Assembly (NCBI GenBank): GCA_963749075.1
Contig: CAVVLJ010000022.1
Coordinates: 148,216-212,215 of the forward strand
Source: an uncultured Pseudomonadota bacterium
GTDB taxonomy: Bacteria > Pseudomonadota > Alphaproteobacteria > JACZXZ01
Direction of reading: 5' to 3'
Length of the DNA stretch: 64,000 nucleotides
Under the pieces are notes generated by a model. That model did no database searches. It was not told where the DNA came from and saw only the letters and a list, made by a program, of their open reading frames with translations. The translations under genes were made by a program, and so were the position numbers. Numbering within the stretch: the stretch's first letter is position 1; each line of letters starts with the position of its first letter. Positions 1,592 to 29,341 of this stretch are shown one piece after another.

Positions 1592-1921
1592 TCAGTCGCG
1601 CAGCGGCCGGCTCGCCACCAGCGGATGATCGGCCGCACTGACATGCTTCGGGCCGGCACCCCCGGGCGCCCCCCAGCCGGTCACCGCGGCGCTGAAGAAA
1701 TCCGCATTGGCGGCCTTGTAGGCGACCTCGGCCGCGGGCAGGTCGTCCTCGTCGAAGATGGCGTCGACGGGGCAGACCGAGAGGCAGAGCCCGCAATTGA
1801 TGCATTCGGCGGGCTGGATGTACATCATGCGCCCGCCCTCGTAGATGCATTCGACGGGGCACACCGTCTGGCAGGCGCCGTCCTTCACGTCGATGCAGGC
1901 AGAGGCGATGACGTAGCTCAC
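1592..1921 (-). CDS. 7Fe (3Fe-4S/4Fe-4S) ferredoxin, FdxA type
   Basis: GTG start, SYVIASACIDVKDGACQTVCPVECIY...CINCGLCLSVCP cysteine motifs. Confidence 0.85.
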   Translation of the reverse strand: MSYVIASACIDVKDGACQTVCPVECIYEGGRMMYIQPAECINCGLCLSVCPVDAIFDEDDLPAAEVAYKAANADFFSAAVTGWGAPGGAGPKHVSAADHPLVASRPLRD

Positions 1922-1923
1922 GC

Positions 1924-2700
1924 TCAGGCGCCCCGCCATTGCGGTGCGCGCTTCTCCTGGAAGGCGCGCACCCCCTCGTGCTGATCGCTCGACTTGAGCG
2001 CTGCCACGAGGGCGGGGAGGCGGAGCGACTGGGCCTCCTGCGGCGCAAGGCCGCTTCCCGCCCGCACCGTCTGCTTGATCGCGCGGATGGAGAGCGGCGC
2101 GCAGGCGAGGATGTCCGCGAGCCAGCGTGCGACGGCGGCGTCGATGTATGCGGTCGGCACCACCTCGTTGACGAGCCCGAGCTGCAAGGCCTCGGTCGCG
2201 GAGATGCGCCGGCCGGTCAAAAGCAACCCCATGGCCGCGACATGGGAGATGCGTCGCGGCAGGAGGGTAATGCCGCCCCCGAGCGGCAAGCGCCCGACGC
2301 GCGGCTCCGGCAGGCCGAAGCTCGCGTGCTCGGCGGCGACCACGATGTCGCAGCCGAGCACCATCTCGAAGCCGCCGCCGAGCGCCAGGCCATTGACGCG
2401 GGCGATGACCGGCACGTCGATCTTGTCGTTGAGTGCGATGCCGCCGAAGCCGCCCGGCGGCAAGGCCGCCAGATAGTCGAGGCCGGTTGGCCCGCCGCTC
2501 GCCTTCATGTCGGCGCCGCTCGAGAAGGCGCGCTCGCCCGAGCCCGTGAGCACGACGGCGCGCACGGAGGCGTCCTTCTCGATCTCCGCCCAGATGCGGA
2601 CTAGCTCCGCCTCGGTCGCCTCGTCCACGGCGTTGAGGCGCTCCGGGCGGTCGATGGTGACGCGCGCGACGCCGTCCTCGCGCGTAAAGAGCACGCTCAC
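1924..2700 (-). CDS. Enoyl-CoA hydratase/crotonase family protein
   Basis: AFSSGADMK, PVIARVNGLALGGGFE and FGLPEPRVG motifs; overlaps the upstream gene. Confidence 0.9.
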   Translation of the reverse strand: MSVLFTREDGVARVTIDRPERLNAVDEATEAELVRIWAEIEKDASVRAVVLTGSGERAFSSGADMKASGGPTGLDYLAALPPGGFGGIALNDKIDVPVIARVNGLALGGGFEMVLGCDIVVAAEHASFGLPEPRVGRLPLGGGITLLPRRISHVAAMGLLLTGRRISATEALQLGLVNEVVPTAYIDAAVARWLADILACAPLSIRAIKQTVRAGSGLAPQEAQSLRLPALVAALKSSDQHEGVRAFQEKRAPQWRGA

Positions 2701-3911
2701 GACACCACCTTGCCGCGGTTAAGCGCGGCGATCTTTCCCTCGTCGTAGCCGAGCTCGCCGAGGATCGCCGCGGCATGCTCGCCGAGCCTTGGCGGGGCGT
2801 AGCGCAGGCGGAAGGCCGAGGGGTCCATGGCGATCGGGCTGCCGATGTAGCGCCTCGGCTCGTTGCCGCCGTCGGCTGCCCCGTCGAGCTCCACCACGAT
2901 GCCGTTCGCCGCCGTCTGCTCGGAGGCGAGCGCCTCGCCGAGCGTCTGCACGGGTGCCGAGAGGAGGTCCTGCTCCTCGAGGCGGGCGAGCCAATAAGCC
3001 GTCGTGTTGCTTGCGAAGCGCTCGGCGAAGCGGGCCTTGAGCTCGGCCTTGCGGGCCAGCTGGCCGGCGAAGGTGGCGTAGGGCGGCTCGGCCGAGAGGT
3101 CCTCGATGCCGAGGGCGGTGCAAATGTCCCTGAGCGGATTGGCCTTGAAGGCGCCGACCAGCACGAGGGCGCCGTCCGAGGTGCTGAATACGCCGTTCAG
3201 CGGGAAGGCGCCCCAGTTGAGCTCGCGGCGGCGCTGCAGCCACATCGCCGCCTCCTGCATCTGCATCGCCAGCATGGAATCATAGAGCGAGACGGAGATT
3301 TCCTGGCCGCGCCCCGTCTTCTCGCGCTGGAGGAGCGCCAGCAGCACCCCCTGCACCAGATGCATGCCGGCTGCGTAATCGGCGAGCGCCGTGCAATAGA
3401 CCGCATAGGGCTGCCGCTCGTCCGAGCGCCGCGCCATCACGCCGGAGAGCGCCTGGGCGAGGATGTCCTGGCCGCCCTTGTGGGCGAGCGGGCCGCGCGG
3501 TCCGTAGCCCGAGCCGAAGGCGGAGATGATGCGCGGGTTGATGGCGGCGAGTGCGGCATGGCCGAAGCCCATGCGCTCCATGACGCCGGCGCGGAAGTTG
3601 TTCACCACCACGTCGGCGGTCTTCACGAGGTCGTAGACGATGGCCTTGCCCGCGGCCCCCCTCAAGTCGATGGCGATCGAGCGCTTGTTGCGGTTGATGC
3701 TGCGGAAGACCGGGTTGTCGAGCCCGTCCGGGTCGTCGGCGAGCGAGGTTCGCGAGAGGTCGCCCACGCCGGGCCGCTCGATCTTGATCACGTCGGCGCC
3801 GTAGTCGGCGAGCATCTGGGTGGCGCAGGGCCCCAGCATCACTTGCGTGAAGTCGATGACGCGGATGCCGGAGAGCGGCTGCGCTGTACCGTTGGCGGGG
3901 CTGCTCGTCAT
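2697..3911 (-). CDS. Class III CoA transferase (CaiB/BaiF)
   Basis: PLSGIRVIDFTQVMLGP, GADVIKIERP, NRNKRSI motifs. Confidence 0.92.
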   Translation of the reverse strand: MTSSPANGTAQPLSGIRVIDFTQVMLGPCATQMLADYGADVIKIERPGVGDLSRTSLADDPDGLDNPVFRSINRNKRSIAIDLRGAAGKAIVYDLVKTADVVVNNFRAGVMERMGFGHAALAAINPRIISAFGSGYGPRGPLAHKGGQDILAQALSGVMARRSDERQPYAVYCTALADYAAGMHLVQGVLLALLQREKTGRGQEISVSLYDSMLAMQMQEAAMWLQRRRELNWGAFPLNGVFSTSDGALVLVGAFKANPLRDICTALGIEDLSAEPPYATFAGQLARKAELKARFAERFASNTTAYWLARLEEQDLLSAPVQTLGEALASEQTAANGIVVELDGAADGGNEPRRYIGSPIAMDPSAFRLRYAPPRLGEHAAAILGELGYDEGKIAALNRGKVVS

Positions 3912-5269
3912 GCCGCCTTCTCTCCCGCATCGAGGGTGGCGTTAGGCGCCGGCACGTCGCCAGGATCGGCGCCCTGGGCGCGCAAGCGCGCCTGCAGCGC
4001 CTTCACGTCCACCTGCTCGACGCCGATGCCGGCATCGAGCGCCAGCGCCGCGGCGAGCCCGGCGGCCTCGCCCATGGCGATGCAGGGGGGAATCTCGCGC
4101 GACACGCGCTGCGCCGCCGAGGTCGCGGAATAGTGCCGCCCGGCGACGAGGAGCTGGCCGACGTTCTTCGGCAGGAGGCAGCGGTACGGATAGTAGTAGT
4201 CGCGGCCGCGCGCGATGCTGTCGGGGAAGTGGCGGCGGCCCATGACGTCCTCCTTGGTGAGCACGTAGGCGCCATCGAGAAGGCGCGTCTGGCGGATGCC
4301 GAGCTGGGGCGCCACGTCGACCACATAGGCGTTCCTGAAGCCGGGCATCCTTTCGCGCACGAATTCGACGAGGCGGGCGATGCGCTGGCGCCCCTCGAAA
4401 TCGGCGCGCGTCAGGTCCTCGATCTTGAGCCCGTCGTAGCCGGCCATGTGCGGGCAGTTGCACCACACGACGCCGGGGAGCGGCGTCTTGAGCCACCATT
4501 TGTCCCAGGAGCCGCCCGTGATCCGCTTCGCCTCGCGGTCGATGGCGTTGAAGGCCGCGGGCTCGGCATATTCGAAGCGCTCGGCCTCCTCGGTGTCGAC
4601 CGCGCCCAAGCGGAAGACGGTGGTCACTATGAAGCTGCCCGCAATGAAGGCAGCACCGGCGGAGGCCGCCACGTCGAGATCGCCCGTCGCGTCCACCACG
4701 ATGCCGCCGAGGATGGCCTGGCGGCCGGCCTTGCCCTCGACGATGACGCCCGCGACGCGGCCCTCCTCGACGATCGCCTTGGAGAACCAGCTGTGCAGGC
4801 GCAGGTTCACCTTCGCCTCGGCGATCATGTCGTTCGAGACGCGCTTGAAGCCGTCGGGATCGAAGGCGACGGAATAGCAGATGGGCTGCGGCTTCTCGTG
4901 CGCGGTGAAGTCGAAGAGGCCCCAGCGCGACCACTTGCGCCACATCGCCCAGTCGGCGCGGCGGTCCGCCTCGGGCGGCGACACGGCGAGGCCGAGCCGC
5001 TCCATGCGCTCGATCATCTCCGTCGAGAGGCCGCGCACGCTGATCTCGCTGCCGTTGCACATGTCGTCGAGCACGAGGACCATGCCGCCCGACGCAAGGC
5101 CGCCTAGATAGGGATAGCGCTCGAGGAGGGCGACCTTGAGGCCGTTCCGCGCTCCCGACACGGCAGCACCTATGCCGGCCGGCCCGCCTCCCACCACGAC
5201 GAGATCGGCGCGCGCCGCCACGGGAACGCGCTCGCCCGGCTCGTCGATCCAGTCGCTCGCGATACTCAT
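3908..5269 (-). CDS. FAD-dependent oxidoreductase (FAD_oxidored-like)
   Basis: GGGPAG Rossmann motif, LGGLASGG, VDATGDLDVA, PYRCLLP...LLVAGR. Confidence 0.88.
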   Translation of the reverse strand: MSIASDWIDEPGERVPVAARADLVVVGGGPAGIGAAVSGARNGLKVALLERYPYLGGLASGGMVLVLDDMCNGSEISVRGLSTEMIERMERLGLAVSPPEADRRADWAMWRKWSRWGLFDFTAHEKPQPICYSVAFDPDGFKRVSNDMIAEAKVNLRLHSWFSKAIVEEGRVAGVIVEGKAGRQAILGGIVVDATGDLDVAASAGAAFIAGSFIVTTVFRLGAVDTEEAERFEYAEPAAFNAIDREAKRITGGSWDKWWLKTPLPGVVWCNCPHMAGYDGLKIEDLTRADFEGRQRIARLVEFVRERMPGFRNAYVVDVAPQLGIRQTRLLDGAYVLTKEDVMGRRHFPDSIARGRDYYYPYRCLLPKNVGQLLVAGRHYSATSAAQRVSREIPPCIAMGEAAGLAAALALDAGIGVEQVDVKALQARLRAQGADPGDVPAPNATLDAGEKAA

Positions 5270-5312
5270 GGGCGGGTCTCCTTGTCGATGAGGGGACGAG
5301 CGGACACGGCGC

Positions 5313-6173
5313 TCAGCCCGCGAGCGCCACGTTCCACTTGATGACGCGGCGCTCGATGGCGGTGATCGCGGCGAAGAAGAGGGCGGAGAAGGTCGAGCCG
5401 ACGACGATGGTGGCGTAGAGCAAGGGCGAGTCGAAGTTGTAGGTGGCCTGGATGATGAGCGCGCCGATGCCGACGTTGGAGCCGATCCATTCGCCCACGA
5501 TGGCGCCGATCACCGCGGTCGAGGCGGCGATCTTGAGGGCCGAGAAGAGATAGGGCAGCGCGTTCTGCACCCGGAGCTTGAAGAAGATCTCCCGCCCGCT
5601 CGCCGACAGCACCTTCATGAGCTCGAGCGCCTGGGGATTCACGTCGCGCAGGCCGCGGGTCATGTTGACGAGGGTGGGGAAGAAGCAGACCAGCGCCGCG
5701 ATGGCGATCTTGGGCTCCATGCCGTTGCCGAGGAGGAGCACGAGGATGGGCGCCTTGGCCACCACCGGGATGGTGTTGACCATGACCGCGATGGGGAAGA
5801 GGGCCTCCTCGATCGCCTTCTTCTGCACGAAGAAGGTGGCGATCGCGATGGCGGTCAGGTTGCCGAGGAGAAAGCCGAGCACCGCCTCGATCGCGGTCGG
5901 CAGCAGGTTCTCCATGAGGAGAGCGAAGCGGCCGGCGAGCACATGGAGGACGGCTGCCGGCGTGGGTGCGATGAAGGGCTTGATGTCGAGGAGGATCACG
6001 GCACCCCACCAGAGGGCCACGAAGCCCACGACCGCCAGCGCGGGCAGCAGACGCTTGCGCCACTCGAGCATGCGCCGGGCGTGGAGGAACCTCGCCTTCG
6101 CCTCCTCGTCGTGGGCGAAGGAGGGGCCGGAGGGTGCGGAGCGCGGACGCCCGCCTATGGTCTCGTCGCTCAT
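5313..6173 (-). CDS. ABC transporter permease, SsuC/TauC (NitT) family
   Basis: Multiple TM segments; EAA-like loop; ALPYLFSALKIA...GAIVGEW; ATG at 6173 coupled to ATPase stop. Confidence 0.9.
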   Translation of the reverse strand: MSDETIGGRPRSAPSGPSFAHDEEAKARFLHARRMLEWRKRLLPALAVVGFVALWWGAVILLDIKPFIAPTPAAVLHVLAGRFALLMENLLPTAIEAVLGFLLGNLTAIAIATFFVQKKAIEEALFPIAVMVNTIPVVAKAPILVLLLGNGMEPKIAIAALVCFFPTLVNMTRGLRDVNPQALELMKVLSASGREIFFKLRVQNALPYLFSALKIAASTAVIGAIVGEWIGSNVGIGALIIQATYNFDSPLLYATIVVGSTFSALFFAAITAIERRVIKWNVALAG

Positions 6174-6997
6174 CAGCAGGTCTCCAGCACGCGGCGCAGG
6201 TGGCCGGCGAGGGCCACGAATTGCGCGCTCTCGCGCAACGCGAGGCGGCGCGGGCTCGGCAGCTCGACCGGCACCAGCTCGCGCACGCGGCCCGGCCTCG
6301 CTGCGAGCAGCAGCACCTCCTGGCCGAGGAAGGCCGCCTCGTAGATCGAATGGGTGACGAAGAGGATGGTGGTGCCGGTCGAGCTCCAGAGGCCGAGGAG
6401 CTCCTCGTTGAGCCGGTCGCGCGTGATCTCGTCGAGCGCGCCGAAGGGCTCGTCCATGAGGAGGAGCTTGGGCTCCGTGACGAGCGCGCGGGCGAGCGCC
6501 ACGCGCTGGCGCATGCCGCCCGAGAGCTCGTGGGGATAGGCGTGCTCCCAGCCGGCAAGACCGACCATGGCGAGGAGCTCGCCGGCGCTGCTGGCGCCCG
6601 CGCGCGCGGCACCGCCCCCGACCTCGAGCGGCAGCATCACGTTGGCGAGCACCGTGCGCCACGGCAGGAGGGCCGGGTCCTGGAAGACGAAGCCGATGTC
6701 GCGGTTCTTGCGCGCTGCCGCCGGCGGCTTGCCCAGCACGCTCAGCGAGCCGGCACTGGGTGCGATGAGATCGGCGATGACGCGCAGGAGGGTCGATTTG
6801 CCGCAGCCCGAGGGGCCGAGAAGACTCACGAAGCCGCCGCGCGCGACCGTGAGGCTCACGTCCTCGAGCGCCGTGATGACGCCGCGCTCGCTTACGAAGC
6901 GCACGGAGAGGCCCTCGCAGCGGACGGCCGCCTCGGCAGGCCCAGGAGATGCCGCGCGCTCGCGCTGTGCCGCCGCCGCCTCGCCCGCCATCGCCAT
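6173..6997 (-). CDS. ABC transporter ATP-binding protein, SsuB/TauB family
   Basis: GPSGCGKST, LSGGMRQR, LLMDEPFGALD. Confidence 0.93.
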   Translation of the reverse strand: MAMAGEAAAAQRERAASPGPAEAAVRCEGLSVRFVSERGVITALEDVSLTVARGGFVSLLGPSGCGKSTLLRVIADLIAPSAGSLSVLGKPPAAARKNRDIGFVFQDPALLPWRTVLANVMLPLEVGGGAARAGASSAGELLAMVGLAGWEHAYPHELSGGMRQRVALARALVTEPKLLLMDEPFGALDEITRDRLNEELLGLWSSTGTTILFVTHSIYEAAFLGQEVLLLAARPGRVRELVPVELPSPRRLALRESAQFVALAGHLRRVLETC

Positions 6998-7007
6998 CGC
7001 TTGCTGC

Positions 7008-8048
7008 CTATCCGAGCTTCGCGCGCGCGTCCTTGGTCGCGGCGAGGATGTCCGTGTCGATCACTTCCGCGAGCTTGGGCGGGCCGGCGGAGAACTGCTT
7101 GAGCTGGTCGTAGAGATCGATCTGCTCCTGCCACACCGCGGGCTCGAAGGTGCCCCAGCCCTTGGCCTTGGTGGCGGCGGTGAATTCGAACTTGAGCATC
7201 GTGCCCACCGCGGCGAGCTCGTCCTTCTCGACGAGGTTGGGGTATTCCTTGAGCAGAAGGCCGACCGCCTTCTCGGGGTTCTCGTAGGTGTAGGCCCAGC
7301 CGCGCGAGGCCGCGCGCACGAAGGCCTCGAGCAGCGCGGCCTTGTGCGCGAGCGTGTCGGTGGTCGCGTAATAGGGCTGGGCGTAGAGCTTGACCCCCTC
7401 GTCCCACAGGCGCATGGCGACGAAATTGCCGCCGAGGGCCCGGAGCGCCGTGGTATTGGTGAGCCAGCCCGTGACCGCCGCCACTTGGCCGGTCACCACC
7501 GGCGACATGTCGGAGCCGATCACCACCACCTCGACGTCCTTCTCGGGGATGTTGTGCTTCTCGAGGAGGGCCGTGAGCAGGATCTTGCCGGTCGCCTGGA
7601 TGCCGATCTTCTTGCCGACCATGTCCTCGGGCGTGCGGATGGGATCCTTGGGCAGCGAGAAGAAGGCGTAGGGATGCTCCTGGGCGCCGACCGCGAAGCA
7701 TTTGACCGGCAGCTTCTGGGAGGCGGCGAGCATGAGCGAGGGGCTCGAGGAGACCTGGCCGATCTCGAAGCGCCCGGAGGCGACGATGGCGACGCCGTCG
7801 ATGCTCGGGCCGCCCGGCTGGATGGCGAGGTTGAGCTTCTCCTCCTCGAAATAGCCGAGCTGCTTCGCCGCGCACTCGCCGATCTGGTTGCCGCCGCCGA
7901 TCCAGCCGAGCTGGAGATTGACCGTGGTGGTCTTGGCCTGGGTGTGGCCGATGCGCGGCGCCAGGCCCGCGATCGCAAGTCCGCCCGCGGCCGCACCTCC
8001 CCGCATCAGAGCCCGCCGCGTCAGCCGCCAAGAGCTTCCTTTTGTCAT
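7008..8048 (-). CDS. ABC substrate-binding protein, NMT1/THI5-like, Tat-exported
   Basis: TRRALM twin-arginine signal; LQLGW...GYFEEEKLNLAIQPGGP; TPEDMVGKKIG. Confidence 0.88.
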   Translation of the reverse strand: MTKGSSWRLTRRALMRGGAAAGGLAIAGLAPRIGHTQAKTTTVNLQLGWIGGGNQIGECAAKQLGYFEEEKLNLAIQPGGPSIDGVAIVASGRFEIGQVSSSPSLMLAASQKLPVKCFAVGAQEHPYAFFSLPKDPIRTPEDMVGKKIGIQATGKILLTALLEKHNIPEKDVEVVVIGSDMSPVVTGQVAAVTGWLTNTTALRALGGNFVAMRLWDEGVKLYAQPYYATTDTLAHKAALLEAFVRAASRGWAYTYENPEKAVGLLLKEYPNLVEKDELAAVGTMLKFEFTAATKAKGWGTFEPAVWQEQIDLYDQLKQFSAGPPKLAEVIDTDILAATKDARAKLG

Positions 8049-8186
8049 CGTCGAGATCTCCCAGGTTCCCGTCAGCGCAAAATCGGCGCCCGGCCGGTGC
8101 CCTAGAATAGAAGAGTTTTTCGCCTATGGTGATGCTTTTTTGCCAGTGTGCCAGTTCGAATTTCCGGGAACGGAGATGAGGCTTCG

Positions 8187-8334
8187 CCCCTCTCCTCCTT
8201 CAGGAGGGAGGGGGCCATCCCGGATGGATGGGAGGGTGAGGAGGCCGAGCGCTTGCGCGCCCGTGCGGCCGACGATGTGCCCGGCAAAGCCACCTCCTCA
8301 CCCCGACCCTCTCCTCCTGAAGGAGGAGAGGGGG
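8187..8334. repeat. Palindromic REP/MITE-like element (CCCTCTCC...GGAGAGGG type)
   Basis: Near-identical ~27-bp terminal inverted repeats (8187-8214 and 8307-8334), each itself a hairpin; a related element lies at 23591. Confidence 0.75.
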
Positions 8335-8350
8335 ATTGTCCAGTGATTTC

Positions 8351-8366
8351 TTGACTGTTTGGTCAA
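8351..8366. promoter_or_regulatory. RutR-type operator
   Basis: TTGACTGTTTGGTCAA matches 12 of 14 specified bases of the E. coli RutR box TTGACCAnnTGGTCAA; a RutR-like gene ends this operon. Confidence 0.8.
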
Positions 8367-8412
8367 TTTTCGCCAGAGTTGCCGTTTGAGGGATTGGGGC
8401 GATCCCAGGGCG

Positions 8413-9645
<1,233 letters not shown>

Positions 9646-9648
9646 CGC

Positions 9649-10911
9649 TTGGCAGCGGTGCAGCACGGCAGTCCCCGTACCCAGCCCCTCGACGAAGGAG
9701 CGGATGCACGGCGCCTGAGCACGGCCGCGGCGGTGCGCGAGCGCGCGGCGCGCATGCTTGCGATGGCGGAGCGTGACGAGCTCCCTCATTTCGCGCTCGT
9801 GCCCGAGCGCCTCCCGGGCGTCATCGATTACGTCCTCGAGACGACGCGGCAGCGCTATCCGGACCTCGCCGTCCCGTTCCACAGCCGCTGGCGGCACTTC
9901 TCGGCGGGCGGGTGCCAACGCTGGTCGGAGCTCGCGGCATCGCTCGGCGGCGTGCCGCCGGACGAGGTGGCGCGCATCCGCTGCGATCTCGCGGTGGTGA
10001 GCGTGCTGCTCGACGCGGGTGCCGGCGAAGGCTGGTGCTATCGCGAGGCCGGCGGGGGCGCATACGCGCGCTCCGAGGGCCTCGCGGTCGCGAGCTACCA
10101 CATGTTCACGAGCGGGCTCTTCTCGGCCGATCCGCACGCCCCCTATCGCGCGGACGCCTCGGCGCTCGCCGCCGTCACGGACGATCGCCTCGCCTCGGCG
10201 CTGCAGGCGAGCGCGCGCAATCCCATGGTCGGGCTCGCCGGACGTGCAGCCCTTCTCCGCCGTCTCGGCGCCGCACTTCTCGCGGAGCCGGCGCTCTTCG
10301 GCTCGCCGCCGCGCGTCGGCCGCATCTTCGATCATCTCCGCCAGCGCGCGGCGGGTGCCGCGCTGCCGGCAAGCGAGATCCTCGCGGCCGTCATGCGCGG
10401 GCTGGGACCCATCTGGCCGGGCCGCGAGAGCCTCGGTGGCGTCAACCTGGGCGACGTCTGGCGCCATTCCGCCATGCGCACGGGCGACGCCACGGAGAGC
10501 CTGATGCCGTTCCACAAGCTCTCCCAGTGGCTCGCCTATTCGCTCATCGAGCCGCTCGCGGAGGGCGGCGTGCCGGTCGCCGGGATCGACGAGCTGACCG
10601 GCCTCGCCGAATACCGCAACGGCGGCCTCATGATCGACGGCGGCCTCCTCGTGCCGCGCGACCCGACGCTCCTCGGCCGGCGGCTTTCGCCAGGCGACGA
10701 AGCAGTGGTGGAATGGCGCGCGCTCACCGTGGCGCTCCTCGACCGCATCGCCGAGGGACTGCGCGCGGTGCTCGGTGTTGACGCCGTGCGGCTTCCCTTG
10801 GCCTCGGTGCTCGAGGGCGGCACCTGGGCGGCCGGCCGGCGCATCGCCCGCGAGCGCCGACCCGACGGCGGCCCGCCGCTCGTCGTCGAGAGCGACGGGA
10901 CCCTGTTCTGA
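9649..10911 (+). CDS. URC4/Urg3 family protein (DUF1688)
   Basis: [52 protein letters not shown]-terminal SDGTLF. Confidence 0.9.
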
Positions 10912-10940: not shown

Positions 10941-11573
10941 ATGGCCGGCAACGTCTTCGTCATCGATCATCCGCTCGCCCAGCACAAGCTCACCCTCATG
11001 CGCCGCAAGGAGACCTCGACCGGCGAGTTCCGCCTGCTCGTGCGCGAGATCAGTCCCTTCATGCTCTACGAGGTGACGCGCGACCTGCCGCTCACCGAAC
11101 GCGAGATCGAGACGCCGCTCCAGACCATGAAGGCGCCGGTCTTGGCGGGAAAGAAGCTCTGCCTCGTGCCGATCCTGCGTGCCGGGCTCGGCTTCGTGGA
11201 TGCCATGCTCGATCTCGTGCCCGCGGCGCGCGTCGGGCACATCGGCCTCTACCGCGATCCCGAAAGCCTCGCCGCGGTCGAATACTATTTGAAGCTGCCG
11301 GAGGACATCGCGTCCCGCCGGGTGATCCTCGTCGATCCCATGCTGGCGACCGGGCATTCCGCGACCGCGGCACTCGGCCGGCTCAAGGAGGCGGGAGCGG
11401 AGAACATCAAGTTCGTCTGCCTGGTGGCGGCACCGGTCGGCATCGCCGAGGTCCAGGCCGAGCATCCCGACGTGCCGATCTACACGGTGGCGATCGACGA
11501 GAGGCTCAACGACCATGCCTACATTCTCCCCGGGCTGGGGGACGCCGGTGACCGGCTCTTCGGCACCAAGTAA
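10941..11573 (+). CDS. upp: Uracil phosphoribosyltransferase
   Basis: [48 protein letters not shown]. Confidence 0.96.
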
Positions 11574-12216
11574 GGCAGCACCCGCCAAGGGCCGCATCCG
11601 GCGCTCGAACGAGGAGAGCATCCTGCGCGCCGCCGAGGAGGTCTTCGCGCGCGCGGGCTTCGGCGGCGCGCGCGTGGCCGACATCGCCCGACGCGCCGGC
11701 ATCCCGCAGGCCAACCTGCATTACTATTTCAGGACCAAGCGCAGGCTCTACCGCGCCGTGCTCGAGAACATCCTCGAGCTGTGGTTAGCTGAGACCGACA
11801 TCATCCGCGCGGAGAGCGAGCCGCGGAAAGCGCTCGAGCAATACGTGCGCGCCAAGATGCGCTTCTCGCGCCGCTTCCCGAACGCCTCCAAGGTCTTCGC
11901 CAACGAGGTCATCCACGGCGCGCGCGAGATCGGTCCCTTCCTCAGGAAGGAGCTGCGCGCCCTCGTCGAGGCGAAGACGCGGGTGATCGAGCAGTGGATC
12001 AGCGCGGGCCGCATGGCGCCGCTCGACCCGCGCCACCTCTTCTTCATGATCTGGGCTGTGACCCAGACCTACGCCGATTTCGAGGGGCAGGTGCGCGCCG
12101 TGCTCGGCGTATCCGCGCTCGGCGAGCGCCAGTTCGCCCATGCGACCGAGGAGGTCGTGGGCCACGTGCTCAGGAGCTGCGGCTTGGCGCCAGCGCCGGC
12201 AGAGGATGCCGAATGA
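11548..12216 (+). CDS. TetR-family regulator, RutR-like
   Basis: [17 protein letters not shown]...[13 protein letters not shown]; [12 protein letters not shown] and [17 protein letters not shown]-domain; start uncertain (GTG 11548 or ATG 11515). Confidence 0.88.
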
Positions 12217-12297: not shown

Positions 12298-15200
12298 TCA
12301 CGAGCTGGCGGAGACCGGTCTCGCGCCGCGGCCGGACGGCGCGAACAGGGCCTCGATGTCCTCCTCGGTAATGGCGAGCGTGGCGCTACGCTCGGCGTCG
12401 AGGATGCTGGCGACGAGGTCGCGCTTCCTTGCCTTGAGCGCCTCCATCTTCTCCTCGACCGTCTCCAGCATGACGAGCTTGTGGACGAAGACCGCCTTGT
12501 TCTGGCCGATGCGGTGGGCGCGCCCGCTTGCCTGGTCCTCGACGGCGGGGTTCCACCAGGGATCGTAGAGGATGACGGTGTCGGCGGCGGTGAGGTTGAG
12601 GCCGGTGCCGCCTGCCTTCAGGCTGATGAGGAAGAGCGGCACCTCGCCCGCCTGGAACCGCCTGATCGGCGTCCCCCGCTCGCGCGTGTCGCCGGTCAGG
12701 ACGACGCGCGCGATGCCCGCTCTGTCGAGCGCCTCCTCGATGAGCGCCAGCATGGAGGTGAACTGCGAGAAGAGCAAAATGCGCCGCCCCTCCTCGACGA
12801 GCTCGGGGATCATCTCCATCAGGCGCTCGAGCTTGGCCGAGCCGGCCTTGGTGTTGCGGACGGCCTGGAGCTTGACGAGGCGCGGGTCGCAGCAGACTTG
12901 GCGGAGCTTGAGGAGCGCATCGAGAATGACGATGCTCGAGCGCGCCAGGCCCTTCGCCGCGACGGCCTCGCGAACCTTGGCGTGCATGGCAAGGCGGATG
13001 CTCTCGTAGATCGCCCGTTGCGCCGCCTCCATCTCAACCCGCTCGACGATCTCCGTCTTCGGCGGCAGCTCCAATTCGACCTCCTCCTTCGTTCGGCGCA
13101 GGAGAAAGGGCCGCACGCGCCGCGCGAGTTGCGTGCGCCGCTCGACGTCGCCGAGCTTCTCGATGGGCACGCGATAGCGGCGGTTGAAGTCCTGCCGGTC
13201 GCCGAGGAAGCCAGGTGCGAGGAAGGCGAAAAGCGACCACAGCTCGCCCAGATGGTTCTCGAGCGGCGTGCCGGAGAGGCAGAGGCGCTGGCGCGCCTCG
13301 AGCTTGGCCACGAGCCGCGTCGTCAGGGCGTTGGGGTTCTTGATGGTCTGCGCCTCGTCAAGGACGACGAGATGCCAAGCCAGTGCTGCCAGCGTCTCGT
13401 GGTCGCGCGCGAGCAGCGGATAGGTCGTGATCGCGAGGTCGTGCGAGGGAATGGCGCCGAAGCGCGCCTTGCGGTCGGCGCCATGGAGCGTCAGGAGCGA
13501 AAGTGCCGGTGCAAACCGCGCCGCCTCCATCGCCCAGTTCGTCACCAGGCTCGTCGGGCAAACCACGAGCGAGGGCCGGTCCATATGTCCTGAGGCCTTC
13601 TCGGCCGCGAGATGGGCGAGCGTCTGCACCGTCTTGCCGAGCCCCATGTCGTCGGCGAGGATGCCGCCGATGCCGGCCTTGCGAAGGAACTGCAGCCAAT
13701 CTAGGCCGCGTGCCTGGTACGGGCGCAAGGCGGCGCGGAAGTCCGGCGGCACCGTCGCTCGGGGGATGCTCCCGGTCTCGCGCAGAAGCCGGCCCAGTTC
13801 GCGCAAGCGCTCTCCGCCGCGCCAGAGCAGGCCCGCCGCGCGCGTAGCCTCCTCGAAGGCCGCGAGATCGCCGGCATCCAGTGCCGAGAAGCCGAGGCCC
13901 GTTGCCTTGCCGCCGAGGGCGCCGGCGCTGAAGAGCTCCAGGAGCGCCTTGAGGATCGGTCGAATGCGGCCGAAGGGGAGCGGCAGGATGCGTCCATCGG
14001 CGAGCGGGAGGAAGACCGGCGCATCCTTGGCCGCGCGCTCCCAAGTTGCCGCGTCGTCGGATGTTGCCACTTCGAGGAAGGCGAGCAATGCCGGCACCAG
14101 GTCGACGCGCTCGCCGTCGACCGTTGTGCCGAGCGCCAGCTCGAACCAATCGATGCCCGACCCTTCATGCAGCTCGGCTGTCACCTCGCCGGCGAACGTG
14201 GCGAACTTGACGGGGAAGTCGTCGGCGACCGCCACGGTCCAGCCTTCCGAGCGAAGCTTGGGCACCTCGAGGTAATGGAAATCGATCCACTCCCTGCCGC
14301 TCGGGCTCCCCATCAGCATGAAATCGTTGCCATGGCGGCCGGCGGAATTGGCGTACCACACGTCGGCCACGCGGCGCAGGCCGCGTGCGATCAGGCGTTG
14401 GAATGCCCTTCGCTCGCCGTCGCGGTCCCGCTTGACGGCATAGAGGCGCCCCTCGTGCGCCACCGTCGGCACCATGCTTTTGTTGGCGTGAAGAACGAGC
14501 ACCGGGCCGTAGCGGAAGGCGAGCCGGGCAAGCGGGGTCCGCACGCGCTCTCGGTCGGCCGCGCTCGAGTGCGAGCCGATGCGGCCATAACCGTACGGGT
14601 TTGCGGCAAGCTCGCCGACGAAGAGCTCGAGATGGGGGAGCGGCGGTGCCCGCAGGGGCTCCGGCGGCGCCATGGGGGCCGGCCAGGCGGCTTCCAGCGC
14701 CGGCAGCCGCTTCGCCAGCTCGGCGCGGACGAGCCCCGCGGCGGCGGCCGTAACCGGCGGTGCGGCCAGGAGCGTATCCGCGAGCGGTTGCGGGCAGTCG
14801 AGCTCGAGCGGACCGAGCACGCCGCGTGCCGCGTCGACATACCAAGCGGGCGCCAGGCGAAACGCTTCGAAACCGCTCTCCGTCTCGACCGCGAGTTGCT
14901 GGGTGCCGTCTTCGCCAAGGCGCCAAGCGAGCCGCCCGGGCCACGCGCGGCCTTCGCTCACCGCTGGCCCCTCGATGGATTTCCAGCGCGCCCGCCCGGT
15001 TGCGATGATCTGGCGCAGCGTCTCGACGCCCTCGGCGCCTTCGAGGCGACGGCCGCCGGCGCCATAGTAATACGAGGGGCCGGCCACGAGGCGCCGCATG
15101 ATGCGCCGGTCGGAAGGGCGGAGGAATTTGGCCGGCTTCGGCTGATGGATGTTCTGCGGCGACCAGCGGCTCGCATTCGCTGCGTAGGACCCGTCCTTGC

Positions 15201-15774
15201 GCAGGCGGGCGGACATGGGAGCGACGTTCAGGGCGGGGATGCCCTGCACCGGCGCGTCGAGGCTGAGCACATAGACAAGGCGCTGTCGCACCTCCGGAGG
15301 GTAGTCTTCATTTCCGCCGTCGCGCGCCTCATCGAGCGCCCGCAGCCAGGCAGCGATGTCGGGCGGCGCCGCGGGTGATGCGTCATTCTCCTTCGTCTCG
15401 GCAAGTGCTGCTGTGCGAGGGACGGTGGTGTCCTCGGCGTTGTCCGGGAGGCGCAACGAAAGGGTCTCGGGCGCGGCGACGATGCCGCGCCCCTCCAAGA
15501 CCGCCATCAGGGCGGCGGCGACATGCTTGCAGTTGAACCCCACCGGGCACGAGCACGTGCCCTCGATCTCGACGAGCCCGCCGGGATAGGTGCTGAGGGA
15601 GATGTCTTGCGCATAGGGGCGGCGCGCCGAACCTTGCACCTTGGACGTGACCACGGCGCCGTCCGCCGAGAGCGCGGTCGCGAGTACGTTGCCCAGTCTC
15701 AGATATTCGCGTGCCTTGGCGAAGGCATTTCGCGAAACCGCATCGCGGACGTCGTCAAGGGTGAACGCGATCAT
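12298..15774 (-). CDS. SWIM zinc finger - SNF2 family helicase
   Basis: CSCPVGFNCKH; LADDMGLGKT; LDEAQ; SGTPLENH; SLKAGGTGLNL; QASGRAHRIGQ. Confidence 0.93.
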   Translation of the reverse strand: MIAFTLDDVRDAVSRNAFAKAREYLRLGNVLATALSADGAVVTSKVQGSARRPYAQDISLSTYPGGLVEIEGTCSCPVGFNCKHVAAALMAVLEGRGIVAAPETLSLRLPDNAEDTTVPRTAALAETKENDASPAAPPDIAAWLRALDEARDGGNEDYPPEVRQRLVYVLSLDAPVQGIPALNVAPMSARLRKDGSYAANASRWSPQNIHQPKPAKFLRPSDRRIMRRLVAGPSYYYGAGGRRLEGAEGVETLRQIIATGRARWKSIEGPAVSEGRAWPGRLAWRLGEDGTQQLAVETESGFEAFRLAPAWYVDAARGVLGPLELDCPQPLADTLLAAPPVTAAAAGLVRAELAKRLPALEAAWPAPMAPPEPLRAPPLPHLELFVGELAANPYGYGRIGSHSSAADRERVRTPLARLAFRYGPVLVLHANKSMVPTVAHEGRLYAVKRDRDGERRAFQRLIARGLRRVADVWYANSAGRHGNDFMLMGSPSGREWIDFHYLEVPKLRSEGWTVAVADDFPVKFATFAGEVTAELHEGSGIDWFELALGTTVDGERVDLVPALLAFLEVATSDDAATWERAAKDAPVFLPLADGRILPLPFGRIRPILKALLELFSAGALGGKATGLGFSALDAGDLAAFEEATRAAGLLWRGGERLRELGRLLRETGSIPRATVPPDFRAALRPYQARGLDWLQFLRKAGIGGILADDMGLGKTVQTLAHLAAEKASGHMDRPSLVVCPTSLVTNWAMEAARFAPALSLLTLHGADRKARFGAIPSHDLAITTYPLLARDHETLAALAWHLVVLDEAQTIKNPNALTTRLVAKLEARQRLCLSGTPLENHLGELWSLFAFLAPGFLGDRQDFNRRYRVPIEKLGDVERRTQLARRVRPFLLRRTKEEVELELPPKTEIVERVEMEAAQRAIYESIRLAMHAKVREAVAAKGLARSSIVILDALLKLRQVCCDPRLVKLQAVRNTKAGSAKLERLMEMIPELVEEGRRILLFSQFTSMLALIEEALDRAGIARVVLTGDTRERGTPIRRFQAGEVPLFLISLKAGGTGLNLTAADTVILYDPWWNPAVEDQASGRAHRIGQNKAVFVHKLVMLETVEEKMEALKARKRDLVASILDAERSATLAITEEDIEALFAPSGRGARPVSASS

Positions 15775-16787: not shown

Positions 16788-16966
16788 CCTTTGCCACCCT
16801 CAGGGCCGCCGTACCATGTCCTCGACATTACCGCAGAATCGGCAGGAACGTGGACGCCATTGCAGCGCCGCCGGCGCCGAGGCAGCGCCGGCCGTCCCTG
16901 CCGCATCTTGCGGTCGCCCGCGCGACGCGCCATGATCGGCCGCGTCAAAGAGGGAAGGGGACAACG

Positions 16967-17758
16967 ATGAGGCCCAATAACGTTCAAGCGGTCTGGAGCA
17001 AGAGCGGCGCCGTGGTCAATGGCTGGCTCGGCATTCCGAACAGCTTCTCGGCCGAGGTCATGGCGACGCTCGGCTGGGATTCGCTGGTCATCGACCTGCA
17101 GCACGGGCTGATCGACTATCAGACCGCGGTCACCATGATGCAGGCGATCTCGACGACCGCCACCACGCCGCTCGTGCGCGTGCCGTGGAACGACCCCGCC
17201 ATCATCATGAAATGCCTCGACGCCGGCGCCTACGGCGTCATCTGCCCGATGATCAACGACCGCGAGGAGGCGGAGCGCTTCGTGGGCGCCTGCCGCTATC
17301 CGCCCAAGGGCTACCGCAGCTCTGGCCCCATCCGCGGCATGATCTACGGCGGCAGCGACTACCAGACCAAGGCCGACGAGACGATCGTGACGCTGGCCAT
17401 GATCGAGACGGCGGACGGGGTGAAGAACCTCGATGCCATCTGCTCGACGCCGGGCCTCGACGCCGTCTATATCGGGCCCAATGATCTCTCGCTGACCCAC
17501 GGCGGCAAGGGCGGGCTCGACGCGACCGACCCGATGGTCGTGGCCCTCATCGACCGCATCCTCGCGGCGGCCAAGCGCAATGGCATCAAGGCCGGCATCC
17601 ACACCGGCAGCGTCGCCTATGCCAAGGCCATGATCGCCAAGGGCTTCGATTTCGTGACCGTGCTGAGCGACAACCGCATCCTCGCGCAACTCGGCCGCCA
17701 GGTGGTGGAGGAGATGCGCGGCGGCGCTGCCAAGAAGGGCCCGGGCGGCGTCTATTGA
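16967..17758 (+). CDS. HpcH/HpaI aldolase family protein
   Basis: [39 protein letters not shown]. Confidence 0.9.
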
Positions 17759-17793
17759 GGCGGCCCTGCGGCGCGAGCCGGGGAGGTTCTGTC

Positions 17794-18612
17794 ATGTCGA
17801 GAGCCTTGCAAGCGGAAAGCGGCCGAGCATTGCGGGACGAGTCCGCGGCGGCCGTGCGGGCGCGCATCCGGTGCGGCGACTATCGCGGCCAGACCTCGGG
17901 CCTGGCGCCGGGCAACGTGCAGGGCAACGTCGCCATCCTGCCGGCCGATTGGGCCGACGAGTTCCTGCGCTTCTGCCTACAAAACCCCAAGCCCTGTCCG
18001 GTTCTCGCCGTGGGCCGGCCGGGCGACCCGATGCTCCCCACCCTCGGCCGCGACATCGACATCCGCAGCGACCTGCCGCGCTACCGCGTCTTCCGCGACG
18101 GTATGGAGATCGACAGCCCGCACGACGCGCGGCGCTGGTGGCGCGAAGATCTCGTCACCTTCGTGCTCGGCTGCTCCTTCTCCTTCGAGGAGGCGCTCCT
18201 GGAGGGCGGGCTTCGCTTGCGTCACGTCGAGGAGGGCATCGGCGTGCCGATGTTCCGCACCAGCATCGACACGGTGCCGACCGAGCGCCTCAGCGGCAAG
18301 CTCGTCGTCTCCATGCGGCCCTTCCGGCCGGCCGACGCCATCCGCGCCGTGCAGATCACCTCGCGCTTCCCGAGCGTGCATGGGGCGCCCGTGCACATCG
18401 GCCTGCCGCAGGCGATCGGCATCGCCGACGTGGCCAAGCCCGATTTCGGCGACGCGGTCGCCGTGCACGCGGACGAGCTGCCGGTCTTCTGGGCCTGCGG
18501 GGTGACGCCGCAAGCGGTGATCGAGGCGGCGCGGCCGCCCTTCTCGATCACGCACTATCCGGGACATATGCTGGTCACGGACCTCGTCAACGCCGAGCTC
18601 GCAGCACTCTGA
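17794..18612 (+). CDS. DUF1445 putative hydro-lyase / D-glutamate cyclase family
   Basis: [46 protein letters not shown]. Confidence 0.88.
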
Positions 18613-27388: not shown

Positions 27389-27820
27389 TCAGCCGCGCTT
27401 GCGCTTGGCGCCCTTGCGGCGGTTGCGCGTGCCGAGGCCGATCTCCTTGGCAAGCGTCGAGCGCGTCTCGGCGTAGCTCGGGGCGACCACGGGATAGCTC
27501 GGCGGCAGGCCCCATTTGGCGCGATAGTCGGCGAGACTCATCTTATGGGCGGATCCCATGTGCCGTTTGAGCATCTTGAGTTGCATCCCGCACTCGAGGC
27601 AGACGAGATGGTTGCGGGTCACCGATTTCTTGATCGGCACGTGCGGCTCGGCCTTGCCGGCCGCGTTCCGATCTTCGCCCAAGCCGCGGAAGCAGTCGTG
27701 CACCTGCCGGATGACGGCGGGAAGCTCGGCCGATTCCACCCGATTGTTGGAAACATATGCCCGGACGACGCTGACGGTCGCCTCCATGAGCTGCCCAGAG
27801 GTTGCAGAATCGTTCATCAT
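27389..27820 (-). CDS. mucR: MucR/Ros family regulator
   Basis: VRAYVSNN...LPAVI, IKKSV...LVCLECG...LKRH, YRAKWGLP..YPVVAPSYAETRSTLAKEIGLG. Confidence 0.9.
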   Translation of the reverse strand: MMNDSATSGQLMEATVSVVRAYVSNNRVESAELPAVIRQVHDCFRGLGEDRNAAGKAEPHVPIKKSVTRNHLVCLECGMQLKMLKRHMGSAHKMSLADYRAKWGLPPSYPVVAPSYAETRSTLAKEIGLGTRNRRKGAKRKRG

Positions 27821-28126
27821 GTTCCTACCTGTGGATGTTATGACCCCGACCGTGCTGGCTACCAAAGCAATAGACCAGTATTCATTATACGAAACTCGCA
27901 GAATATGGCGAGCTATATTTGTCGTCTGTTGTGGCGAATTTTCCCCCGCATTTTAGGCGAGTCAAGTGCAATGTTTGCCTGTGCCTCAACCAATTCCTCA
28001 AATGCTGGCGATTTCTCTTTGCCGCGCGGCGAATTTGCCGGCGGCACCGGCGGGACGCCTGGTGCCGCTTGCCCATTTGCCGCCGTTATGGTGCTAAGAT
28101 GCCTCCTCCAAACGAGAAGGTGCGCG

Positions 28127-29341
28127 ATGACGAAAGCCTCGACGGGAGCGCTCTCCGGCCTCAGGATCATCGATCTCACCCGCGTGCTGGGCGGGCCCTA
28201 TTGCACGCAGATCCTCGGCGACCATGGCGCCGACGTGATCAAGGTCGAGCCGCCCTCAGGCGACGAGACGCGCGGCTGGGGGCCGCCCTTCAAGGACGAG
28301 ACCGCCTCCTATTTCATCGGAGTCAATCGCAACAAGCGCGGCATCGTCCTCGACCTCTCCCGCGCCCAAGGACGGCGCGTGCTCCTTGCGCTCCTCGAGA
28401 CGGCCAACGTGCTCGTCGAGAACTTCAAGACCGGCACCATGGAGAAATGGGGGCTGGGCTACGAAGATACGCTCAAGGAGCGCTTTCCCCGCTTGGTGCA
28501 CTGCCGCATTTCGGGCTTCGGGGCCGACGGGCCGCTCGGCGGCGCCCCGGGCTATGACGCGGTGGTGCAGGCGATGGCCGGGCTCATGAGCATCAACGGC
28601 GAGCCGGACCAGCAGCCGCTCAGGGTGGGGACGCCGGTCGTGGATCTCGGCACCGGGCTCTATGCCGCCTGCGGCATCCTCATGGCGCTCGCCGAGCGCC
28701 AGCGCTCCGGCCGCGGCCAGTTCGTCGAGGCGACGCTCTACGATTCGGCGCTCGCCCTCCTCCATCCCCATTCGGCCAACTGGTTCCTCTCGGGCAAGAC
28801 GCCGCAGCGCACGGGGAACGCCCATCCGAACATAGCACCCTATGATTCGTTTCAGACCGGGACCAAGGCCATCTTCGTCGCCGTCGGCAACGACCGGCAG
28901 TTCGCGCGCGTGGCGGCGGCACTGGGGCGGCCGGATCTCGCGGACGACGCGCGCTTCCGCTCCAACCGGGAGCGCAGCGCCAACCGCGCGGCGCTCCGCG
29001 CCGAGCTCGAGGCGGCGCTCGCGGACGTGGACGGCGAGGCCTTCGCCGAGCGGCTCCTGGAGGAGGGCGTTCCCGCCGGTCCCGTGCGCGACGTGCCCGA
29101 GGCGCTGACGCATCCCCATACGCGCCACCGGGAGATGGTCGTCGAGCGGGACGGCTACCGCGGCACGGGGACGCCCATCAAGCTCTCGCGCACGCCGGGG
29201 AGCGTGCGCCTCCTGCCGCCGGCGCTCGGCGAGGCGAGCCGCGAGGTGCTCGCGGAGGCGGGCTTCACGGGCGAGGAGATCGAGCGCCTGATCGCCGACG
29301 GCACGGTGCCGCTGCCCAAGGCGGAGCGCGCGGCCGAGTGA
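28127..29341 (+). CDS. Class III CoA transferase (CaiB/BaiF)
   Basis: ALSGLRIIDLTRVLGGP, GADVIKVEPP, NRNKRGI, PGYDAVVQA. Confidence 0.92.
   Translation: MTKASTGALSGLRIIDLTRVLGGPYCTQILGDHGADVIKVEPPSGDETRGWGPPFKDETASYFIGVNRNKRGIVLDLSRAQGRRVLLALLETANVLVENFKTGTMEKWGLGYEDTLKERFPRLVHCRISGFGADGPLGGAPGYDAVVQAMAGLMSINGEPDQQPLRVGTPVVDLGTGLYAACGILMALAERQRSGRGQFVEATLYDSALALLHPHSANWFLSGKTPQRTGNAHPNIAPYDSFQTGTKAIFVAVGNDRQFARVAAALGRPDLADDARFRSNRERSANRAALRAELEAALADVDGEAFAERLLEEGVPAGPVRDVPEALTHPHTRHREMVVERDGYRGTGTPIKLSRTPGSVRLLPPALGEASREVLAEAGFTGEEIERLIADGTVPLPKAERAAE

Follow-up and report, generated by a model that had tools for sequence, protein, structure and literature searches.

An uncharacterised, widespread operon of probable CoA-dependent acid catabolism found beside the uracil-degradation genes of a soil alphaproteobacterium

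What is a compact operon of transport genes and coenzyme A (CoA)-linked enzymes doing back to back with genes for the breakdown of uracil? The question is raised by a stretch of 64,000 nucleotides from an uncultured alphaproteobacterium (contig CAVVLJ010000022.1 of assembly GCA_963749075.1, positions 148,216 to 212,215), hereafter the window, in which seven minus-strand genes diverge from a plus-strand cluster URC1-URC4-upp-rutR. A preliminary description of this DNA had put the seven genes forward as a candidate for the missing arm of the bacterial URC pathway of pyrimidine breakdown, the arm that deals with the C3 fragment of the ring. We found that the operon is widespread, uncharacterised and probably a variant of CoA-dependent acid catabolism, that as a general statement its role as the C3 arm of URC fails, and that in the genus of the window the operon has lost its own regulator and become coupled to the URC genes. 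The source genome (5.49 Mb on 23 contigs) comes from a soil assembly, and the window has a G+C content of about 70%. The genes of the operon, from first to last, are:

7008-8048, minus strand: substrate-binding protein (SBP), NMT1/THI5-like, with a twin-arginine-type leader (PF09084, E 1e-44)
6173-6997, minus strand: ATPase of an ATP-binding cassette (ABC) transporter (PF00005, E 2e-32)
5313-6176, minus strand: ABC permease (PF00528, E 2e-28)
3908-5269, minus strand: oxidoreductase dependent on flavin adenine dinucleotide (FAD), hereafter the flavoenzyme (PF12831, E 9e-87, 292 bits)
2697-3911, minus strand: family III (CaiB/BaiF/Frc-type) CoA-transferase (PF02515, E 2.5e-105)
1924-2700, minus strand: crotonase-fold enoyl-CoA hydratase/dehydratase (PF00378, E 2e-59)
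1592-1939, minus strand: FdxA-type ferredoxin (NF045480, 128 bits against a cut-off of 125)

The picture of seven co-directional, tightly packed genes drawn in the preliminary description was borne out: all are intact open reading frames (ORFs) on the minus strand and match the families that had been named for them. From the SBP gene to the ferredoxin gene the junctions are a 10-nt gap, a 4-nt overlap (of the permease ATG at 6176, a start read from the translation, with the ATPase stop), a 43-nt gap, two 4-nt overlaps and a 16-nt overlap, and because successive genes are so closely spaced the array looks like one transcription unit. With the GTG at 1921 as the start of the ferredoxin, a 2-nt gap to the crotonase gene takes the place of the last overlap. 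A search with the NCBIfam profiles assigned the ATPase and the permease to the NitT/TauT type; the best models for the ATPase were those of taurine/Sao-type ATPases, every one of them below its cut-off.

The main evidence for a unit of its own comes from other genomes. A scan of species representatives (one genome per species) gave at least 543 loci with a relative of the flavoenzyme, and the locus counts out of 80 given below refer to the best 80 of these, in which the flavoenzyme is 62-79% identical. The gene order was kept, with the SBP gene opening the array, in 67 of the 68 loci untouched by contig ends. All seven genes were present in 49 of the 80 loci, the first six without an adjacent ferredoxin gene in 18, while 12 loci were cut by contig ends and one was rearranged; the ferredoxin gene was adjacent in 49 and lay somewhere within the locus in 56. 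A gene for a LysR-type regulator was found at 56 of the 80 loci, half of the time divergent upstream and half of the time just downstream, and at 48 of the 58 loci with at least 3 kb on both sides. In the closest relatives (G073, G114, G059, G392 and G166) it lies exactly at the position that the URC genes occupy in the window. The module was also found on 60 plasmid or chromid records, with Rhizobium (for instance Rhizobium johnstonii 3841, on plasmid pRL11, RL_RS29860-29905), Ensifer, Paracoccus, Roseibium, Rhodococcus and Arthrobacter among the carriers. On the Rhodococcus plasmid pLP1 (L171) and on an Arthrobacter plasmid (L172) a metabolite:H+ symporter-type (MHS) transporter of the major facilitator superfamily (MFS) replaces the ABC system, and the actinobacterial cluster continues with genes for a dihydrodipicolinate synthase (DHDPS)-family protein, a short-chain dehydrogenase/reductase (SDR), a 2,5-dioxovalerate-dehydrogenase-like aldehyde dehydrogenase (ALDH) and with fdxA. 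Since the importer is always present and yet interchangeable (ABC or MFS), the substrate is presumably an external carboxylic acid. The pLP1 copy is flanked by IS3 and IS256 transposases. For most of the small recurrent ORFs in the flanks of the 80 loci Pfam gave no match, and they resemble the opposite-strand shadows of G+C-rich DNA. In three of the loci (e.g. L050, 14747-17068) a subunit of a molybdenum hydroxylase of the xanthine dehydrogenase family is encoded downstream of the operon, at a distance of about 2.4 kb.

The conserved linkage to URC1 and URC4 that had been expected was contradicted when the neighbourhoods were compared. The genes URC1-URC4-upp lie within 10 kb of the operon at only one of the 80 loci (L033), and the operon was found at none of 30 alphaproteobacterial URC loci, one per genome, which were surveyed for up to about 10 kb on each side of URC4. 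The trio URC1-URC4-upp itself was present at 28 of the 30 (one of the others had no match to upp and one was cut), and clustering of all ORFs in the flanks of these loci gave no conserved neighbour past the trio. What this says about the URC pathway is mostly a negative: in bacteria three genes make up a core that is sufficient in itself, and the operon is not its general C3 branch.

Co-occurrence within genomes gave a more nuanced picture. We drew 401 genomes evenly from the class and counted a flavoenzyme match at E <=1e-180 as an orthologue; URC4 was present in 31 of them, the orthologue in 12 and both in 5, the operon being missing in 26 of the 31 genomes with URC4 and URC4 in 7 of the 12 with the operon. 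Where both were present they were located on different contigs, the window excepted. URC4 was also found in 7 of 20 further genomes with the operon, which were picked by hand from the 80, in list order, for their longer contigs. Taken together, and with the genome of the window left out, 11 of 31 operon-bearing genomes have URC4 against 26 of 389 without the operon, or about 35% versus 7%. Within the family of the window, three of 11 genomes have both the operon and URC4, eight have neither and none has only one of them. The operon is enriched alongside URC4, yet is neither necessary nor sufficient.

Adjacency was seen in three genomes and in differing arrangements: in the window, in its genus-mate G004 and at L033. 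In G004 (loci L174, contig C27, 1-3565, and L176, contig C168) the C-terminal part of URC4, upp, a spacer of 284 bp and the genes for SBP, ATPase and permease follow each other on one strand of one contig, with neither rutR nor a LysR gene. In a tree of URC1 the proteins of the window and of G008, a genome of the same family, are sisters (support 100/98), that of G004 groups with another family (98/95) and that of L033 is placed elsewhere. URC modules of at least two origins therefore came to adjoin the operon, since URC1 of the window and URC1 of G004 belong to separate clades, both well supported. Random placement, with URC present in about 35% of genomes, would bring the two within 10 kb of each other at about 0.2 of some 85 loci, and three such loci were observed; by this rough estimate the operon has come to lie beside URC genes in more cases than chance predicts. 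Other genes of pyrimidine metabolism were found next to it as well: upp alone is divergent from the SBP gene at L056, L057 and L070, and pyrE and a thymidine kinase gene are located just upstream of the operon on the Arthrobacter plasmid. Because RutA is rare in the class (over the cut-off in 5 of the 401 genomes) and was found in none of the 12 operon-bearing ones, no link to the Rut pathway is indicated. Of the proposal of a missing URC arm, what falls is the general role, given the rarity of linkage and the LysR regulator of the operon, and what is left is an enrichment of URC4 among operon-bearing genomes and, by the rough estimate, a placement near URC genes above the chance level.

We favour, at about even chances, the reading that the operon is a self-contained, horizontally mobile module for the uptake and catabolism of an exogenous acid, most likely one that bears an N-heterocycle or nucleobase, and that it probably meets uracil metabolism. 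Gene content, conservation and neighbourhoods are observed here; the chemistry of every step we infer. The first step would be the import of the acid by the ThiY-like SBP and its ABC transporter. The solved chains nearest to the SBP are 4nmy and then ThiY (3ix1, a binder of formylaminopyrimidine; E 2e-13, 53 bits), and of the solved SBPs whose ligand is named, ThiY is the nearest; its ligand is a pyrimidine.

The second step would be the formation of a CoA thioester of the acid by the CoA-transferase, with Asp178 as the likely catalytic residue. The protein matches positions 1-365 of the 366 of the PF02515 profile, and Asp178, invariant in 77 of 77 orthologues, aligns (by offsets) with Asp169 of formyl-CoA transferase, which we take to be catalytic; the full-length match and the catalytic-type Asp place it in family III. 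Among solved chains it is closest to formyl-CoA transferases, SUGCT and YfdE, and it thus resembles enzymes that act on small di-acids (oxalate, glutarate and 3-hydroxy-3-methylglutarate (HMG)).

The flavoenzyme would then carry out a two-electron step at the C-C or C=C bond that adjoins the thioester and exchange the electrons with the FdxA-type ferredoxin, which is likely to be its electron partner. The earlier remark that this enzyme has no assigned reaction holds: it has more than 4000 homologues, many of them 73-83% identical, and none is specifically named. An AlphaFold model built from an alignment of 113 sequences reached a predicted local distance difference test (pLDDT) score of 96.6, where 17 near-identical sequences had given only 52. 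The best PDB folds found for it with Foldseek (a geranylgeranyl-reductase (GGR)-like protein, 3oz2, PnpA, FixC, 7koe_C, and flavocytochrome c3; template-modelling (TM) scores 0.45-0.47) were generic two-domain flavoproteins only, with no TM score above 0.47. Searching the PDB by sequence and by profile gave matches to the FAD-binding part alone, and a search of the ESM Atlas gave nothing beyond clusters named 'FAD-dependent oxidoreductase'. The Pfam match, a dinucleotide-binding motif and the two-domain flavoprotein fold make it a member of PF12831, a membership that is uninformative on the reaction because no close relative is solved or named. Several of the distant fold relatives reduce or form C=C bonds or use a ferredoxin-type partner; this fits the adjacent ferredoxin and does not fix the reaction. 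Paralogues of 33-38% identity in six genomes give no functional lead, since CoA-transferase, crotonase and SBP genes are missing from their neighbourhoods. Literature searches on PF12831, and on pyrimidine degradation with a CoA-transferase, a crotonase and an FAD oxidoreductase, returned nothing relevant, and one on the copy of pRL11, made with presumed older locus tags, found no paper.

The crotonase would hydrate the product or eliminate a group from its beta position. All of the 76 orthologues compared share its Glu112 (in GGGFE) and Glu132 (in GLPE), so that it keeps both of what are presumably the catalytic glutamates of the family, in the motifs that we take to hold them, as a true hydratase or dehydratase would. 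The PF00378 fold and the two glutamates place it among the hydratase-type crotonases. Mycobacterial entries named 'carnitinyl-CoA dehydratase' are its nearest solved chains, and a 3-hydroxypropionyl-CoA dehydratase (5zai) is also among the matches.

A deaminase is encoded beside the operon in 36 of the 80 loci, namely a TRZ/ATZ-type amidohydrolase in 26 and a CDA-fold enzyme in 10, and never both. These genes adjoin the operon or are separated from it only by the LysR gene, with the exception of L031, where the amidohydrolase gene is about 6.6 kb away. The nearest solved relatives of the amidohydrolase are deaminases of methylthioadenosine and S-adenosylhomocysteine (MTA/SAH), and those of the CDA-type enzyme are CMP/dCMP-type deaminases. 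That two unrelated folds are swapped at one position suggests one shared task, which would be to strip a nucleobase-like ring of an exocyclic amino group. In many relatives the adjacent deaminase, of either type, would accordingly handle an amino form of the substrate or product, and in some relatives the DHDPS-family enzyme, the SDR and the 2,5-dioxovalerate-dehydrogenase-like enzyme would finish the carbon skeleton.

How the operon is controlled in the window can be read in part from the spacer between the SBP and URC1 genes, which measures 364 bp from ATG to ATG and contains three features:

8100-8146, no strand: remnant of a LysR-type operator/promoter element, alignable with the spacer between the SBP and LysR genes in G073 and also with G004
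8188-8337, no strand: dispersed repeat of 150 bp with nested palindromes (folding energy dG -111 kcal/mol, z -6.6)
8351-8366, no strand: RutR-like box TTGACTGTTTGGTCAA, with 2 mismatches to the consensus used

The palindrome GATGCC-N5-GGCATC was found upstream of the operon in 38 of 73 regions, against a mean of 2 in shuffled sequence. In the closest relative, G073, the flavoenzyme is 82% identical and the LysR gene is divergent from the SBP gene. The window keeps, at 8100-8146, the right half and the promoter-proximal part of this palindromic operator, whose left half is degenerate; by eye it has about four mismatches to the palindrome, mostly in the left half, and it fails a scan at up to two mismatches. 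The spacer of G004 keeps the promoter-proximal element without the palindrome. Neither the window nor the rest of the source genome has an orthologue of the LysR protein of the operon, and with no adjacent LysR gene and no intact operator the window departs from the usual LysR-controlled form.

The 150-bp repeat has at least 35 near-full copies elsewhere on the contigs of the genome (72-87% identity), which identifies it as an insertion like a miniature inverted-repeat transposable element (MITE) or a repetitive extragenic palindrome (REP). Its arms of 25-40 bp also occur alone in the genome. The RutR-like box, found in a scan with a consensus, is the only one with 2 mismatches among four matches in the window at up to 3 mismatches (0.85 expected). 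It lies past the repeat, 47 bp from the URC1 ATG and 303 bp from the SBP ATG. G008 has a box with 1 mismatch 92 bp upstream of URC1 and rutR following upp, and there a different contig carries the seven-gene operon together with a LysR gene of its own. As G008 thus has the box and URC1-rutR without an adjacent operon, the box at 8351-8366 probably belongs to the URC1-rutR module. Such a box was seen in only 2 of 29 upstream regions of URC1. The preliminary description had reported a shared intergenic region with a RutR box: the divergent genes, the spacer and the predicted box are there, whereas shared control by RutR is left unsupported by the URC1-proximal place of the box, the repeat that separates it from the operon and the remnant of a LysR operator on the side of the operon. 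Control by a LysR regulator of its own would be the usual state, and in the genus of the window LysR would have been lost and URC modules placed beside the operon, divergent here and in tandem in the genus-mate; from this loss and this placement the operon probably meets the metabolism of uracil or uridine monophosphate (UMP) at one point.

Several observations weigh against this reading. No named homologue ties any enzyme of the operon to a substrate, and the direction and nature of the redox step of the flavoenzyme are guesses, since it has no characterised close relative by sequence or fold. Among the 58 loci with at least 3 kb on both sides, 29 carry no deaminase gene. The source genome has none adjacent to the operon either, nor an orthologue of the neighbouring amidohydrolase (best match 30% identity), and the DHDPS, SDR and ALDH set is absent from beside the operon in the window. 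The counts of co-occurrence and adjacency with URC genes, such as those in the class sample (URC4 in 5 of the 12 operon-bearing genomes against 26 of the 389 others), all ignore phylogeny, genome size and habitat. On the URC1 side the original assembly is what vouches for the join, since public contigs of two soil metagenome runs give no cover over 8372-8488 and break within the repeat. A second genome of the genus, G004, independently has URC genes beside the operon, and it is a bin of 79% completeness with short contigs.

A possible but less probable explanation is that the acid is unrelated to pyrimidines, for instance a C5-C6 dicarboxylate or a cyclic amino-acid derivative, and that adjacency to URC arose as accessory modules hitch-hiked in plasmids and in flexible regions rich in repeats. 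This would agree with the rarity of physical linkage (3 of about 85 loci), with the patchy and mobile nature of both modules and with the dispersed repeat at their junction. The resemblance of the CoA-transferase to enzymes of small dicarboxylates fits as well, MHS-type transporters carry many carboxylates, and the DHDPS, SDR and 2,5-dioxovalerate-dehydrogenase-like neighbours are, from what is known of these families, typical of routes to 2-oxoglutarate. It accounts poorly for three adjacencies where the rough estimate gives about 0.2, with at least two URC lineages involved, for the joint presence or absence of the operon and URC4 in 11 of 11 genomes of the family, for the interchange of nucleobase-type deaminases of two unrelated folds, and for the neighbouring upp (three loci) and pyrE and thymidine kinase genes.

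A more specific form of the reading that we favour, which we consider improbable as it stands, is that the operon imports a nucleobase with a carboxylated side chain or sugar acid (e.g. a nucleoside 5'-carboxylate or an N-carboxyalkyl pyrimidine) and frees a base of the uracil or cytosine type. The carboxyl group would be activated as a CoA ester, and desaturation by the flavoenzyme followed by hydration by the crotonase would collapse the bond to the base. The neighbouring deaminase would act on the freed base before it went on to upp and URC, and the remainder of the acid would reach 2-oxoglutarate through the DHDPS-family, SDR and aldehyde dehydrogenase enzymes. Such a pathway would explain together the importer, the deaminases, the upp, URC and pyrE neighbours and the finishing enzymes of the C5 type. 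If true, it would represent a new, CoA-dependent cleavage between a base and its substituent and the first reaction assigned to this subfamily of PF12831.

More doubtful still is the role first proposed, in which the operon, under control of RutR, imports a pyrimidine and converts the C3 acid of the URC pathway (3-hydroxypropionate or malonate semialdehyde) through its CoA ester; after CoA transfer the crotonase would dehydrate the ester to acryloyl-CoA, which the flavoenzyme and ferredoxin would reduce. Though it fails as a general role, it may yet hold in the genus of the window. It draws on the divergent arrangement with a RutR-like box in the spacer, the tandem arrangement behind URC4-upp in G004, the enrichment of URC4 among operon-bearing genomes and an enzyme set formally capable of turning 3-hydroxypropionate into propionyl-CoA, with 5zai among the matches of the crotonase. 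Set against these are the scarcity of linkage (one of the 80 operon loci, none of the 30 URC loci), the 26 of 31 genomes that have URC4 without the operon and the 7 of 12 with the converse. The invariant importer favours an external substrate over an internal C3 fragment, the operon has its own LysR gene and operator at other loci, and the box is URC1-proximal and in G008 travels with URC1-rutR while the operon is elsewhere. The deaminases and the DHDPS, SDR and 2,5-dioxovalerate-dehydrogenase-like enzymes of the C5 type are ill-suited neighbours for a C3 acid. Finally, an ordinary mmsA, the usual sink for malonate semialdehyde, is encoded elsewhere in the source genome. The nicotinate route of Azorhizobium and Eubacterium was rejected, as none of its enzymes is encoded in the operon; the part of PMC3511419 drawn on here describes a nicotinate cluster with nicotinate dehydrogenase, a homologue of 6-hydroxynicotinate reductase and enamidase.

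Among known systems, the ThiXYZ importer shares with the operon an SBP of the ThiY fold family (PF09084), ThiY being the second-best solved match, but it is a salvage importer without catabolic enzymes and the match amounts to only 53 bits. The carnitine system of E. coli combines CaiB and CaiD with CaiA and FixABCX, and also has the ligase CaiC and the antiporter CaiT. Like the operon, it brings in an acid whose CoA ester is handled by a CoA-transferase of family III and a (de)hydratase of the crotonase fold, and a flavoprotein has a ferredoxin-like partner (FixC and FixX), FixC (7koe_C) being among the best folds for the flavoenzyme; the crotonase of the operon is matched by the CaiD model and the transferase by the CaiB model, both below their cut-offs. 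However, no product of the operon matches the acyl-CoA dehydrogenase CaiA, the electron transfer flavoprotein FixAB, CaiC or CaiT, the TM score between flavoenzyme and FixC is only 0.45 and the importer is an NMT1-type ABC system, so that the operon is not a member of the carnitine system. AcuN-AcuK (acrylate and 3-hydroxypropionate) and DmdB-DmdC-DmdD (methylmercaptopropionate) are marine-bacterial routes with an acyl-CoA dehydrogenase or a medium-chain dehydrogenase/reductase (MDR)-type reductase. They have in common with the operon the conversion of an acid to its CoA ester, alpha,beta redox chemistry and a crotonase hydration able to expel a beta-substituent, and differ from it in that they are not known to have a PF12831 enzyme with ferredoxin, a dedicated NMT1-type importer or LysR and deaminase neighbours.

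The operon is common, with thousands of near-identical proteins in soil metagenomes, and strongly conserved, with no substrate named for any of its enzymes. Once the substrate was named, thousands of genes could be annotated, and a nitrogen-containing acid that has so far gone unnoticed might prove to be used by soil bacteria. The repeated URC, upp and nucleobase-type deaminase neighbours narrow the candidate ligands to a short list, and several of the carriers are cultivable, for example Rhizobium johnstonii 3841, Paracoccus versutus and Roseibium aggregatum.

The plus-strand genes of the window are an ordinary member of the bacterial URC operons of the type URC1(UrcA)-URC4-upp, of which the seven-gene operon was not a part in 30 of the 30 sampled loci:

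8413-9645, plus strand: URC1/UrcA-type cyclohydrolase (PF12471 and PF00925; NF005536, 731 bits)
9649-10911, plus strand: URC4 (DUF1688; PF07958, E 6e-143)
10941-11573, plus strand: uracil phosphoribosyltransferase upp, the equivalent of URC6 (PF14681, E 1e-77)
11515-12216, plus strand: TetR regulator of the RutR family (TIGR03613, 196 bits, and NF011584, 177 bits, both below cut-off)

URC1 matches the solved bacterial enzyme (PDB 7EJ3/7EEV) at E 3e-175. That enzyme, UrcA, is stated in the part of PMC9499338 drawn on here to hydrolyse uridine triphosphate (UTP) in the breakdown of uracil. A literature search on DUF1688 and on URC1/URC4 returned work on yeast only. The longest ORF of rutR has 59 nt in common with the end of upp, so that the true start is probably further downstream. 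Since RutA was not found in the source genome at E <=1e-100, the regulator would serve the URC genes and not Rut genes.

Some further genes were seen around URC clusters and in the window. In G004 a gene for a zinc-type alcohol dehydrogenase is divergent from URC1. In two URC clusters of one genus (L133, 5323-12985, in G310, and L137 in G166) a 2-oxoglutarate (2OG)-Fe(II) oxygenase is encoded upstream of URC1, and a GNAT acetyltransferase and a distant (30-33%) paralogue of the PF12831 enzyme downstream of upp. Directly beyond the URC module of the window, an SNF2-family helicase of 1158 aa with an N-terminal SWIM zinc finger is encoded on the minus strand (12298-15774), and further on, on the plus strand, an HpcH/HpaI-type aldolase/lyase followed by a protein with a D-glutamate cyclase domain (16850-18612) and a 598-aa protein in which a family III CoA-transferase domain is preceded by an N-terminal extension of about 200 aa (27545-29341).

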